The notes beneath the pieces were generated by a model that worked only from the letters and a program-made list of their open reading frames with translations, was not told where the DNA came from and searched no databases. The position numbers and the translations under genes are program-made. Source: Eledone cirrhosa (taxonomy: Eukaryota). Taken from it: DNA of 64,000 nt. Shown here piece after piece: positions 48,551 through 54,427 of this stretch. The DNA lies in the NCBI GenBank assembly GCA_964016885.1, contig OZ024761.1, positions 30,876,001-30,940,000 on the forward strand, read 5' to 3'. Positions within the stretch are counted from its first letter, which is position 1; each line of letters opens with the position of its first letter.

Positions 48551-48770
48551 AATTAAGTTAAAAATGTACATCCACATATGTATACTGAAATACTAGTATG
48601 CATATGAATACACACACGTGTACATATGTAGATGTACCGAGTTTTCACTGGTCACTTTACTGTGAGTGTCCAGCTATTCTGTATGTAGACACACAGACAA
48701 ACCGGTTCTTAGAGTCATACTGGTTTTTGAGGAAACACCTTTCCTCTATTCTCCAGAAAGCCAGACAAGG

Positions 48771-48815
48771 AATATTGGACTAGTTTCGATGTTGTTACAT
48801 CTCATCAGCAATATT
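48771..48815 (-). ncRNA. Type I hammerhead ribozyme
   Basis: Reverse complement of aatattg-CTGATGA-gatgt(aaca)acatc-GAAAC-ta-GTC-caatatt. Confidence 0.9.
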
Positions 48816-49235
48816 TACCTATCTTCCGGCTTCTCTAGAGAATCGTGAAAGCACCTATCGTTATATGCTTTTTCTATGAAAATTAGTAGTGGGCAGACCA
48901 ATTTGCATAGAGCGTGAGTACGTACCGGTTCAACGGAGACGATAAAAACAAATAACGAAACGAAATTAAATTTCGTTTCGTTTGTAACTCACTTTTGTAT
49001 GACTGACGCTTAAACAATTAAGTTAAAAATGTACATCCACATATGTATACTGAAATACTAGTATGCATATGAATACACACACGTGTACATATGTAGATGT
49101 ACCGAGTTTTCACTGGTCACTTTACTGTGAGTGTCCAGCTATTCTGTATGTAGACACACAGACAAACCGGTTCTTAGAGTCATACTGGTTTTTGAGGAAA
49201 CACCTTTCCTCTATTCTCCAGAAAGCCAGACAAGG

Positions 49236-49280
49236 AATATTGGACTAGTTTCGATGTTGTTACATCTCATCAGCAATATT
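49236..49280 (-). ncRNA. Type I hammerhead ribozyme
   Basis: Same motif, +465. Confidence 0.9.
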
Positions 49281-49700
49281 TACCTATCTTCCGGCTTCTC
49301 TAGAGAATCGTGAAAGCACCTATCGTTATATGCTTTTTCTATGAAAATTAGTAGTGGGCAGACCAATTTGCATAGAGCGTGAGTACGTACCGGTTCAACG
49401 GAGACGATAAAAACAAATAACGAAACGAAATTAAATTTCGTTTCGTTTGTAACTCACTTTTGTATGACTGACGCTTAAACAATTAAGTTAAAAATGTACA
49501 TCCACATATGTATACTGAAATACTAGTATGCATATGAATACACACACGTGTACATATGTAGATGTACCGAGTTTTCACTGGTCACTTTACTGTGAGTGTC
49601 CAGCTATTCTGTATGTAGACACACAGACAAACCGGTTCTTAGAGTCATACTGGTTTTTGAGGAAACACCTTTCCTCTATTCTCCAGAAAGCCAGACAAGG

Positions 49701-49745
49701 AATATTGGACTAGTTTCGATGTTGTTACATCTCATCAGCAATATT
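49701..49745 (-). ncRNA. Type I hammerhead ribozyme
   Basis: Same motif, +930. Confidence 0.9.
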
Positions 49746-49903
49746 TACCTATCTTCCGGCTTCTCTAGAGAATCGTGAAAGCACCTATCGTTATATGCTT
49801 TTTCTATGAAAATTAGTAGTGGGCAGACCAATTTGCATTAGAGCGTGAGTACGTACCGGTTCAACGCATATAACGATTCTCTAGAGAAGCCGGAAGATAG
49901 GTA

Positions 49904-49948
49904 AATATTGCTGATGAGATGTAACAACATCGAAACTAGTCCAATATT
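49904..49948 (+). ncRNA. Type I hammerhead ribozyme
   Basis: Stem I aatattg/caatatt; CUGAUGA 49911-49917; stem II gatgt/acatc; GAAAC-ua-GUC with cleavage predicted after 49941. Confidence 0.92.
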
Positions 49949-50368
49949 CCTTGTCTGGCTTTCTGGAGAATAGAGGAAAGGTGTTTCCTCAAAAACCAGT
50001 ATGACTCTAAGAACCGGTTTGTCTGTGTGTCTACATACAGAATAGCTGGACACTCACAGTAAAGTGACCAGTGAAAACTCGGTACATCTACATATGTACA
50101 CGTGTGTGTATTCATATGCATACTAGTATTTCAGTATACATATGTGGATGTACATTTTTAACTTAATTGTTTAAGCGTCAGTCATACAAAAGTGAGTTAC
50201 AAACGAAACGAAATTTAATTTCGTTTCGTTATTTGTTTTTATCGTCTCCGTTGAACCGGTACGTACTCACGCTCTATGCAAATTGGTCTGCCCACTACTA
50301 ATTTTCATAGAAAAAGCATATAACGATAGGTGCTTTCACGATTCTCTAGAGAAGCCGGAAGATAGGTA

Positions 50369-50413
50369 AATATTGCTGATGAGATGTAACAACATCGAAA
50401 CTAGTCCAATATT
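50369..50413 (+). ncRNA. Type I hammerhead ribozyme
   Basis: Same motif, next monomer. Confidence 0.92.
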
Positions 50414-50833
50414 CCTTGTCTGGCTTTCTGGAGAATAGAGGAAAGGTGTTTCCTCAAAAACCAGTATGACTCTAAGAACCGGTTTGTCTGTGTGTCTACA
50501 TACAGAATAGCTGGACACTCACAGTAAAGTGACCAGTGAAAACTCGGTACATCTACATATGTACACGTGTGTGTATTCATATGCATACTAGTATTTCAGT
50601 ATACATATGTGGATGTACATTTTTAACTTAATTGTTTAAGCGTCAGTCATACAAAAGTGAGTTACAAACGAAACGAAATTTAATTTCGTTTCGTTATTTG
50701 TTTTTATCGTCTCCGTTGAACCGGTACGTACTCACGCTCTATGCAAATTGGTCTGCCCACTACTAATTTTCATAGAAAAAGCATATAACGATAGGTGCTT
50801 TCACGATTCTCTAGAGAAGCCGGAAGATAGGTA

Positions 50834-50878
50834 AATATTGCTGATGAGATGTAACAACATCGAAACTAGTCCAATATT
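50834..50878 (+). ncRNA. Type I hammerhead ribozyme
   Basis: Same motif. Confidence 0.92.
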
Positions 50879-51298
50879 CCTTGTCTGGCTTTCTGGAGAA
50901 TAGAGGAAAGGTGTTTCCTCAAAAACCAGTATGACTCTAAGAACCGGTTTGTCTGTGTGTCTACATACAGAATAGCTGGACACTCACAGTAAAGTGACCA
51001 GTGAAAACTCGGTACATCTACATATGTACACGTGTGTGTATTCATATGCATACTAGTATTTCAGTATACATATGTGGATGTACATTTTTAACTTAATTGT
51101 TTAAGCGTCAGTCATACAAAAGTGAGTTACAAACGAAACGAAATTTAATTTCGTTTCGTTATTTGTTTTTATCGTCTCCGTTGAACCGGTACGTACTCAC
51201 GCTCTATGCAAATTGGTCTGCCCACTACTAATTTTCATAGAAAAAGCATATAACGATAGGTGCTTTCACGATTCTCTAGAGAAGCCGGAAGATAGGTA

Positions 51299-51763: not shown

Positions 51764-51808
51764 AATATTGCTGATGAGATGTAACAACATCGAAACTAGT
51801 CCAATATT
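51764..51808 (+). ncRNA. Type I hammerhead ribozyme
   Basis: Same motif. Confidence 0.92.
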
Positions 51809-52228
51809 CCTTGTCTGGCTTTCTGGAGAATAGAGGAAAGGTGTTTCCTCAAAAACCAGTATGACTCTAAGAACCGGTTTGTCTGTGTGTCTACATACAG
51901 AATAGCTGGACACTCACAGTAAAGTGACCAGTGAAAACTCGGTACATCTACATATGTACACGTGTGTGTATTCATATGCATACTAGTATTTCAGTATACA
52001 TATGTGGATGTACATTTTTAACTTAATTGTTTAAGCGTCAGTCATACAAAAGTGAGTTACAAACGAAACGAAATTTAATTTCGTTTCGTTATTTGTTTTT
52101 ATCGTCTCCGTTGAACCGGTACGTACTCACGCTCTATGCAAATTGGTCTGCCCACTACTAATTTTCATAGAAAAAGCATATAACGATAGGTGCTTTCACG
52201 ATTCTCTAGAGAAGCCGGAAGATAGGTA

Positions 52229-52273
52229 AATATTGCTGATGAGATGTAACAACATCGAAACTAGTCCAATATT
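52229..52273 (+). ncRNA. Type I hammerhead ribozyme
   Basis: Same motif. Confidence 0.92.
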
Positions 52274-52693
52274 CCTTGTCTGGCTTTCTGGAGAATAGAG
52301 GAAAGGTGTTTCCTCAAAAACCAGTATGACTCTAAGAACCGGTTTGTCTGTGTGTCTACATACAGAATAGCTGGACACTCACAGTAAAGTGACCAGTGAA
52401 AACTCGGTACATCTACATATGTACACGTGTGTGTATTCATATGCATACTAGTATTTCAGTATACATATGTGGATGTACATTTTTAACTTAATTGTTTAAG
52501 CGTCAGTCATACAAAAGTGAGTTACAAACGAAACGAAATTTAATTTCGTTTCGTTATTTGTTTTTATCGTCTCCGTTGAACCGGTACGTACTCACGCTCT
52601 ATGCAAATTGGTCTGCCCACTACTAATTTTCATAGAAAAAGCATATAACGATAGGTGCTTTCACGATTCTCTAGAGAAGCCGGAAGATAGGTA

Positions 52694-52738
52694 AATATTG
52701 CTGATGAGATGTAACAACATCGAAACTAGTCCAATATT
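52694..52738 (+). ncRNA. Type I hammerhead ribozyme
   Basis: Same motif. Confidence 0.92.
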
Positions 52739-53158
52739 CCTTGTCTGGCTTTCTGGAGAATAGAGGAAAGGTGTTTCCTCAAAAACCAGTATGACTCTAA
52801 GAACCGGTTTGTCTGTGTGTCTACATACAGAATAGCTGGACACTCACAGTAAAGTGACCAGTGAAAACTCGGTACATCTACATATGTACACGTGTGTGTA
52901 TTCATATGCATACTAGTATTTCAGTATACATATGTGGATGTACATTTTTAACTTAATTGTTTAAGCGTCAGTCATACAAAAGTGAGTTACAAACGAAACG
53001 AAATTTAATTTCGTTTCGTTATTTGTTTTTATCGTCTCCGTTGAACCGGTACGTACTCACGCTCTATGCAAATTGGTCTGCCCACTACTAATTTTCATAG
53101 AAAAAGCATATAACGATAGGTGCTTTCACGATTCTCTAGAGAAGCCGGAAGATAGGTA

Positions 53159-53203
53159 AATATTGCTGATGAGATGTAACAACATCGAAACTAGTCCAAT
53201 ATT
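53159..53203 (+). ncRNA. Type I hammerhead ribozyme
   Basis: Same motif. Confidence 0.92.
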
Positions 53204-53623
53204 CCTTGTCTGGCTTTCTGGAGAATAGAGGAAAGGTGTTTCCTCAAAAACCAGTATGACTCTAAGAACCGGTTTGTCTGTGTGTCTACATACAGAATAG
53301 CTGGACACTCACAGTAAAGTGACCAGTGAAAACTCGGTACATCTACATATGTACACGTGTGTGTATTCATATGCATACTAGTATTTCAGTATACATATGT
53401 GGATGTACATTTTTAACTTAATTGTTTAAGCGTCAGTCATACAAAAGTGAGTTACAAACGAAACGAAATTTAATTTCGTTTCGTTATTTGTTTTTATCGT
53501 CTCCGTTGAACCGGTACGTACTCACGCTCTATGCAAATTGGTCTGCCCACTACTAATTTTCATAGAAAAAGCATATAACGATAGGTGCTTTCACGATTCT
53601 CTAGAGAAGCCGGAAGATAGGTA

Positions 53624-53668
53624 AATATTGCTGATGAGATGTAACAACATCGAAACTAGTCCAATATT
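53624..53668 (+). ncRNA. Type I hammerhead ribozyme
   Basis: Same motif. Confidence 0.92.
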
Positions 53669-54088
53669 CCTTGTCTGGCTTTCTGGAGAATAGAGGAAAG
53701 GTGTTTCCTCAAAAACCAGTATGACTCTAAGAACCGGTTTGTCTGTGTGTCTACATACAGAATAGCTGGACACTCACAGTAAAGTGACCAGTGAAAACTC
53801 GGTACATCTACATATGTACACGTGTGTGTATTCATATGCATACTAGTATTTCAGTATACATATGTGGATGTACATTTTTAACTTAATTGTTTAAGCGTCA
53901 GTCATACAAAAGTGAGTTACAAACGAAACGAAATTTAATTTCGTTTCGTTATTTGTTTTTATCGTCTCCGTTGAACCGGTACGTACTCACGCTCTATGCA
54001 AATTGGTCTGCCCACTACTAATTTTCATAGAAAAAGCATATAACGATAGGTGCTTTCACGATTCTCTAGAGAAGCCGGAAGATAGGTA

Positions 54089-54133
54089 AATATTGCTGAT
54101 GAGATGTAACAACATCGAAACTAGTCCAATATT
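54089..54133 (+). ncRNA. Type I hammerhead ribozyme
   Basis: Same motif, last copy. Confidence 0.92.
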
Positions 54134-54427
54134 CCTTGTCTGGCTTTCTGGAGAATAGAGGAAAGGTGTTTCCTCAAAAACCAGTATGACTCTAAGAACC
54201 GGTTTGTCTGTGTGTCTACATACAGAATAGCTGGACACTCACAGTAAAGTGACCAGTGAAAACTCGGTACATCTACATATGTACACGTGTGTGTATTCAT
54301 ATGCATACTAGTATTTCAGTATACATATGTGGATGTACATTTTTAACTTAATTGTTTAAGCGTCAGTCATACAAAAGTGAGTTACAAACGAAACGAAATT
54401 TAATTTCGTTTCGTTATTTGTTTTTAT

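Follow-up and report, generated by a model that had tools for sequence, protein, structure and literature searches.

The 64,000-nucleotide stretch of the Eledone cirrhosa genome analysed here (assembly GCA_964016885.1, contig OZ024761.1, forward-strand positions 30,876,001 to 30,940,000; hereafter, the window) contains at 48551-54427 an array of 465-bp repeats, each with a type I hammerhead ribozyme. On sequence criteria the element qualifies as a non-LTR retrozyme (LTR, long terminal repeat), a class that is already known; what is new, as far as our literature search reaches, is the anatomy of its insertions, which links it to twin priming by Penelope-like elements (PLEs) and speaks for the repeated copying of one RNA. 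We propose, with a probability of about 70%, that a retrozyme circle is primed from both ends of a cut target and reverse-transcribed by rolling circle by an enzyme from a PLE of the Neptune/Nematis type. Two fixed outer ends paired by rule, the same rule in a PLE of the same genome, retrozyme-PLE hybrids and variants common to all units of an insertion carry this proposal.

Repeat analysis of the window agreed with the array limits and the period of 465 bp given by an earlier interpretation made from the letters alone (the sequence-only reading), which had described a plain tandem array of apparently identical units. The repeats are there, but not in a single orientation: the locus is a head-to-head insertion within (TA)n, formed by two divergent arms with three and ten ribozymes, and flanked by TA-rich microsatellites of 8 kb and 2-3 kb (monomer positions are hereafter counted from the first base past the GUC triplet, at window 50407). 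The plus-arm units show 0 mismatches among them, and to that extent the identity holds; however, the minus arm has one extra base, and the inner end of the plus arm a 15-nt deletion, the jump at the inner junction (386 to 402) passing through a 5-nt microhomology. The monomer has a GC content of 37%, and the only repeated open reading frame (ORF) of at least 40 amino acids is one of 61 codons on the antisense strand, as expected of units said to encode no real protein.

A strict descriptor found 13 hammerhead cores in the array, 10 on the plus and three on the minus strand, whereas the rest of the window gave no match, nor did any of 2,000 shuffled monomers. This is the number counted before, and the 7-bp stem I, the 5-bp stem II, the extended stem I, the GUC triplet and the predicted cut position at 49941+465n were all recovered in the sequence and the fold (z -5.1). 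An Rfam or descriptor scan had been suggested as a check; the descriptor returned 13 of 13, whereas the Rfam model Hammerhead_HH9 matched the array at 38.9 bits (E 2.2e-8), under its gathering score of 52. At the gathering threshold Rfam gave no hammerhead in the window, its sole match being one tRNA-like sequence elsewhere, and the miRNA and sRNA matches of the sub-threshold scan were rejected as chance hairpins. The 13 cores had been called complete; as monomers they are not, helix III being a single C-G pair, on the palindrome ACUAGU. Hammerheads with such a helix III are said to cleave as dimers (PMC4209133), so that cleavage is expected, and probably required, to take place in a dimer; multimers would then be cut and monomeric circles spared. 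A cleavage test with the monomer may therefore fail even if the model is right.

The ribozyme core is nearly invariant across insertions. In 50 haplotypes the stem II pair 443-454 covaries, being A-U in 25 and U-A in 25, a split that may go back to one inherited event; the cleavage triplet is GUC in 221 units and GUU in 135. These patterns suggest that the core and stem II are under selection. The predicted fold of the whole monomer is strongly self-paired (z -8.3). Intact ribozyme junctions number 358, against 2 of 135 inner arm ends at position 1-2, which points to copying through the cut site; of seven inner ends first scored at position 1, six were due to short pieces missed by BLAST.

The assembly (3.0 Gb, 1,796 contigs) was then searched with the 465-bp unit, which gave 532 candidate places, of which 24 were scored, and 264 matches; subfamilies are 85-100% identical to the window unit. 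Exact junctions of monomer 301 with TA occur 1,994 times (control, 0), and junctions of monomer 224-232 with TA 606 times on the forward strand, the reverse-strand count being inflated by overlapping matches. Arms have median lengths of 653 and 583 nt and a maximum of 14.3 kb. The search for the monomer elsewhere in this genome thus met dispersed copies with the marks of retrotransposition, among which target-site duplications (TSDs) are tentative, and the earlier proposal, that this is a non-LTR retrozyme family, young and dispersed, which a Penelope-like element would help to move, is supported by at least 1,994 ends, the PLE end rule and the hybrids described below. That the family is active, as also claimed, is supported only indirectly, by near-zero divergence within arrays and by one insertion missing from the homologous chromosome. 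A 465-nt circular RNA of the family is suggested by its genomic footprints. Four runs of unrecorded kind were not counted as evidence. Among them X1, possibly the source sample, shows loose ends where monomer positions 227, 232 and 301 pass into TA; in X4 and X5 there is a single contig each, 495-496 nt long (unit + 30), such as would come from a circle and from tandem DNA alike.

Seventy-nine insertions were analysed: 22 from the best-scoring loci and the window together, 40 found by the long end (monomer about 301) on C1 of the assembly, and 17 found by the short end (224-232). The set of 40, chosen regardless of the other arm, consists of the first 41 long ends listed on C1, with L110 dropped as a duplicate of L109 (one insertion plus flanks present twice, 17.7 kb apart, a local or assembly duplicate); the set of 17 comprises short-end picks lacking an exact long end listed nearby. 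Fifty-nine insertions are long/short, none is long/long, one is short/short, 15 show a single retrozyme arm and four have another end. Within the set of 40, 30 are long/short and none long/long, which by arithmetic has a probability of about 1e-9 at even odds; a suspected long/long pair, L093, is actually two insertions. The inner ends, in turn, are scattered round the monomer, with some excess by the 258-289 hairpin and just past the cut site. Either arm may be the longer (14.3 kb versus 0.35 kb; 1.3 versus 4.6 kb), and this excludes a simple fold-back. A permissive search, informative where the flanks hold telling bases, returned 13 loci with TSDs, 9 of them at 11-13 bp, which are tentative, since chance matches are easy in TA; at the window insertion itself the duplication is unresolvable. 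The long site reads UUAU|CG; the short site is ragged and without this motif.

Two hybrids join the retrozyme to PLEs. At L031, a retrozyme long arm directly abuts, in head-to-head orientation and with no base in between, a PLE ORF that belongs to an intact element (P0002) with 1,302 codons, reverse transcriptase (RT) motifs, a CX4CxxC finger and, at the C-terminus, a GIY-YIG domain; at L111, the partner of the retrozyme long arm is a short-end arm from a second PLE family (protein identity 65%). At the corresponding position on C11 this microsatellite carries no insertion, so that the L031 insertion is probably polymorphic, though C11 might be a paralogue. Cross-matching of the end lists over the first 40 Mb of C1 revealed no further hybrid, and a genome search to rank more of them was swamped by TA repeats. 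As read from its ORF, P0002 encodes a single protein, RT followed by GIY-YIG, with a CX2-5CxxC finger and CCHH, and its pseudo-LTR (pLTR) carries a minimal hammerhead. The Atlas neighbours of the protein carried HTH_animal, GIY-YIG and RVT_1 (0.96-0.98); Pfam and PDB sequence scans gave nothing significant. A finger of the CX2-5CxxC type marks Neptune and Nematis (PMC8557442), and by finger and domain order P0002 would be a PLE of this type.

The end rule holds in the PLE as well. Junctions of P0002 with TA number 12,819 at the short end and 11,464 at the long end; the two sites lie 60 nt apart, and both read AUAU|CG. All 10 two-armed loci in which both ends were seen are long/short; among adjacent head-to-head pairs, 43 of 48 are long/short, three long/long and two short/short (p 6e-9; 100 short and 88 long ends, those listed first on C1, 12 long ends past the reach of the short list being excluded). 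The retrozyme itself has the inverted 5'-truncated arm, the tail at one end and the (TA)n target of a PLE-mobilised element. PLE-type mobilisation is well supported, and P0002 and the second family are candidate helpers. A third family, which has a hammerhead but no ORF, gives a weak alignment to monomer 185-301 (score of 74 against a shuffle maximum of 70) and ends on the same base; it is a possible relative or parent of the retrozyme. Its copies (L079:1881-2118, L042, L061, L062, L141) are TA-flanked, with a minimal hammerhead, and often fold-back; their last 105 nt or so resemble the monomer segment.

Other loci bear on the PLEs and their targets. L065:4776-8681 is an intact P0002-type PLE with an asparagine-rich insert in the 1,302-codon ORF. 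Some P0002 arms continue beyond the pLTR and enter the preceding unit, as would be expected from a circle of 4.4 kb. The second PLE family, at L072:4121-7144 and L088:1-1330, has its own hammerhead and two 3' ends. At L063, L079, L088 and L107, one TA tract holds both a retrozyme and a PLE insertion, placed tail to tail; these microsatellites are repeated targets. L031:4575-5120, L142 and L143 contain a young tandem repeat of about 600 bp, with 4,216 candidate places and with runs of (GATA)n or TA between its units; it yielded no hammerhead core, and it is missing from the homologous C11 site.

Each insertion appears to have been copied from one template. Two or more segregating sites separate the arms in 3 of 49 testable insertions, against 2,168 of 2,415 random pairs. 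The G at position 388 of the window insertion has 12 matches in the assembly, all of them in the window, three on one arm and nine on the other. Variants fixed within an insertion and missing from its five nearest relatives are rich in A>G (18, with 6 T>C, of 40; with more loci, these counts replace the earlier 21 and 6 of 44), whereas variants of single units are not (17 A>G and 29 T>C of 171; Fisher p 0.005). Fifteen of the 18 fixed A>G changes lie within predicted stems, against 84 of 145 adenosines; ADAR prefers stems. At L117, eight of nine differences from the nearest unedited relative are A>G, and the pattern occurs four times in the assembly, always at that locus, in all covering units and both arms. 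At L118, 13-14 of 19 differences from the nearest covering relatives in 300-465 are A>G, some perhaps subfamily states; the pattern has three copies, all in one arm. We infer that the A>G clusters are A-to-I edits of the template. The excess is on the hammerhead strand, which would make the template an RNA of hammerhead sense, and the presence of the same edits in every unit points to one monomeric circle, because the units of a linear multimer would be edited separately.

The cycle that we envisage would start from a read-through transcript of an array, which would cleave as a double hammerhead to 465-nt monomers, closed by a host ligase into circles; with one ribozyme of weak helix III left, the circle would be stable, and this structured RNA would sometimes be A-to-I edited. 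The PLE endonuclease would make a staggered cut in (TA)n, of roughly 11-13 nt to judge from the ends. Each DNA end would then prime at its own internal RNA site, 301 or 224-232, through 2-4 nt of AU microhomology; here the pattern is observed and the mechanism proposed. Both polymerases, probably one dimer on one circle, would go from 0.1 to 18 or more turns. The two cDNAs stop variably and are joined by microhomology or a short filler, and the observed product is the head-to-head insertion with its 'tail' at one end. Now and then the two ends would copy different RNAs, and some arrays would be reshuffled later at the DNA level. A fuller version, to which we give slightly less than even chances, has one dimeric PLE enzyme on one closed RNA, priming at two fixed sites from the two ends of a staggered cut, with two polymerases circling, the edits as single-molecule barcodes, and a retrozyme circle of viroid size that parasitises the PLE cycle by mimicry of the priming sites, without pLTR homology. 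If true, the same cycle would account for the tail, the tandem pLTRs and the inversion of PLEs in general.

Several observations weigh against this proposal. A single retrozyme arm is all that 15 of 79 insertions show, hybrids are 2 of 79, the L031 contig stops before the PLE arm ends, and L111 could be nested. The monomer has no significant likeness to the 3' region of either PLE, with scores under those of shuffles; the best match, a 21-nt likeness of the monomer hairpin to the long end of the PLE, runs in reverse and out of register (E 3.9), and was rejected. Covariation outside the ribozyme is weak, with 20 one-sided, 18 breaking and two compensatory changes in the predicted fold. The arms are discordant in the 3 of 49 insertions mentioned, and in the PLE locus L077. 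The A>G excess is clustered, and counted by insertion becomes 9 versus 6. An edited haplotype, that of L096, has 69 matches at seven places, showing that edited arrays can become sources, and a private variant could derive from a homogeneous source array missing in the assembly. At L085 a 31-unit arm has recurrent variants in no order, at L113 one arm has an A>G change at 111 in 6 of its 12 units and the other arm has none, and L046 repeats an internal deletion; these loci point to DNA-level turnover or to more than one template, and the unit differences kept there by the assembly lessen the worry that polishing homogenised units. L121 and L085 together (G000:C1:5738086-5752750) make up this 31-unit arm, a mosaic of recurrent variants and a minisatellite-like retrozyme array. 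Lastly, a PLE enzyme in vitro made no strand difference in start site, and unprocessed RNA was its main substrate (PMC11167929).

The latter result suits an explanation without a circle, in which PLE twin priming takes place on an uncleaved linear multimer from a homogeneous source array, the two ends priming in different units or transcripts. With so weak a helix III, multimers may stay uncut, among nine Xenopus dimers eight did not cleave (bioRxiv 10.64898/2026.07.22.740005), L113 and the discordant arms suit non-identical units or two RNAs, and the L096 haplotype shows source arrays with fixed edits. We consider this unlikely, however: in a linear multimer each unit would acquire its own edits, but the L117 edits are the same in four covering units, in both arms, and unique in the assembly, and those of L118 are the same in three units of one arm. 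A fixed array with many edits also requires a prior step of single-unit amplification, arrays could not regrow, and the apparent selection on the ribozyme core and stem II speaks against this explanation.

Growth after insertion, by unequal crossover or slippage from one or two units per arm, is less probable still. It is favoured in the discussion of a study of Xenopus retrozymes (bioRxiv 10.64898/2026.07.22.740005), most arms are short, as the medians indicate, and L085 and L113 have DNA-level patterns; but the youngest arrays are already long both ways with no divergence (9.8 + 2.8 units in the window), L096 has 12 + 7 units with no unit-private change, and an 8.5-unit arm occupies a site that is empty on the homologous chromosome. 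Variants common to both arms are also left unexplained, unless present at insertion. Fold-back self-priming on an antisense template, favoured for rotifer PLEs in which one of the inverted pLTRs bears a tail (PMC3846280), would agree with the palindromic inner junctions at the 258-289 hairpin in L039, L097 and L115. It is largely excluded by the arm lengths, either arm being at times far longer; moreover, the two outer ends differ by rule and the edits read A>G on the hammerhead strand, and we hold it to be very improbable. Twin-primed copying of a retrozyme circle thus remains the reading that we prefer. The features of the window insertion are collected in Table 1.

Table 1. Features of the retrozyme insertion in window coordinates.
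Feature	Position	Strand	Remarks
Left (TA)n-type target microsatellite	40434..48550	.	
Short-end arm, 2.83 units	48551..49866	-	Outer (RNA 3') end monomer 227, inner end 308
Minus-strand predicted cuts	49708/49707, 49243/49242, 48778/48777	-	
First of 3 minus hammerheads	49701..49745	-	Others 465 and 930 bases leftward
Long-end arm, 9.8 units	49866..54427	+	Outer end monomer 301
Inner junction	49866..49877	+	1 base common to both arms, monomer 375-386, jump to 402; read directly
First of 10 plus hammerheads	49904..49948	+	Every 465 to 54089-54133; predicted cut after 49941+465n
Extended stem I, one unit	50341..50436	+	Closes monomer in predicted circular fold
Locus-private base, monomer 388 G	50794	+	All 12 units covering site, both arms
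Outermost stretch, long-end arm	54354..54427	+	For comparison: PMC11167929
Strong hairpin, monomer 258-289	54384..54415	+	Every unit; just upstream of long priming site
Right (TA)n-type target microsatellite	54428..57805	.	

Elsewhere in the window, a small head-to-head fold-back element in TA at 62700-62900 has two minimal hammerhead-like cores (62850, plus; 62829, minus), and looks like a remnant of another PLE family. Lone hammerhead-like cores lie by TA runs at 24381 and 7053; both fail the strict descriptor. The tRNA-like match at 6743-6800 (minus strand, 35.2 bits) is probably the head of a tRNA-derived short interspersed nuclear element. Open frames at 34389-34895 and 28755-29228, both on the minus strand, resemble by eye what are presumably fragments of the reverse transcriptase of RTE-type long interspersed nuclear elements.

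This one genome offers around 2,000 natural copies made from a 465-nt template, together with an intact candidate enzyme, start sites known to the base and mutations that serve as barcodes. Three matters could therefore be tested in a single system: the identity of the enzyme that moves animal retrozymes, the reverse transcription of a circular RNA beyond its first turn, and the origin of the inverted arms and tail of PLEs. A processive polymerase rolling on a small circle and writing into (TA)n would also be of interest for gene-writing tools. In the literature examined, the round-and-round copying of a small RNA circle by a PLE enzyme into both strands of a cut has long been proposed and not demonstrated. 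The retrozymes of coral, mussel and axolotl were shown to form circles, while PLE helpers and the making of tandem cDNA on such circles were proposed without test (PMC7229834); retrozyme repeats hold no motif that identifies the helper, according to the portion of PMC7761336 consulted, and circular templates were proposed for PLE tandems (PMC4209133), in whose supplementary files, so far as searched, there is no octopus or cephalopod entry. A PLE enzyme has two internal start sites, extends both strands and is a predicted dimer (PMC11167929). Our literature search found no cephalopod retrozyme, two-armed retrozyme insertion, long/short pairing rule or edit barcodes, although subscription papers, Repbase, Dfam and supplements could hold them.

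The family shares with metazoan non-LTR retrozymes the tandem non-coding units of less than 50% GC, one type I hammerhead in each, the self-paired predicted fold and the dispersed arrays (PMC7229834; PMC7761336). Its unit is longer, 465 nt against about 170-400 nt in coral, mussel and axolotl, and its head-to-head arms, fixed ends, tail and (TA)n target are not described for metazoan retrozymes in the sections of PMC7229834 at hand; expression was demonstrated for the retrozymes of that study, whereas the present family is known from genome sequence alone. A one-pair helix III on a palindrome, with dimer cleavage expected, likens it by description to newt satellite 2 and axolotl HHR_Amex1, while for invertebrate retrozymes the literature has most hammerheads cleaving as monomers. 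With endonuclease-positive (EN+) PLEs it shares the inverted 5'-truncated arm, the tail, the two internal start sites and the (TA)n target (PMC8557442; PMC3846280; PMC11167929), and a similar TSD size (8-10 bp in rotifers); it differs in having no ORF, a tail of 69-77 nt against 30-40, many full turns per arm, and no homology that could be detected to the pLTRs of the two PLE families found. Xenopus retrozymes were linked by homology to PLE pLTRs, from which they would derive, and PLEs co-occur with retrozymes in both cases (bioRxiv 10.64898/2026.07.22.740005); the Xenopus link rests on homology and co-occurrence, that proposed here on insertion anatomy and hybrids. The other comparison is with LINE-1. 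In LINE-1 twin priming both target ends prime, and the 5' inversion is joined by microhomology; the second primer lands variably, and the two cDNAs do not overlap. In the retrozyme, by contrast, the two priming sites are fixed, and one and the same sequence is copied over and over in each arm.

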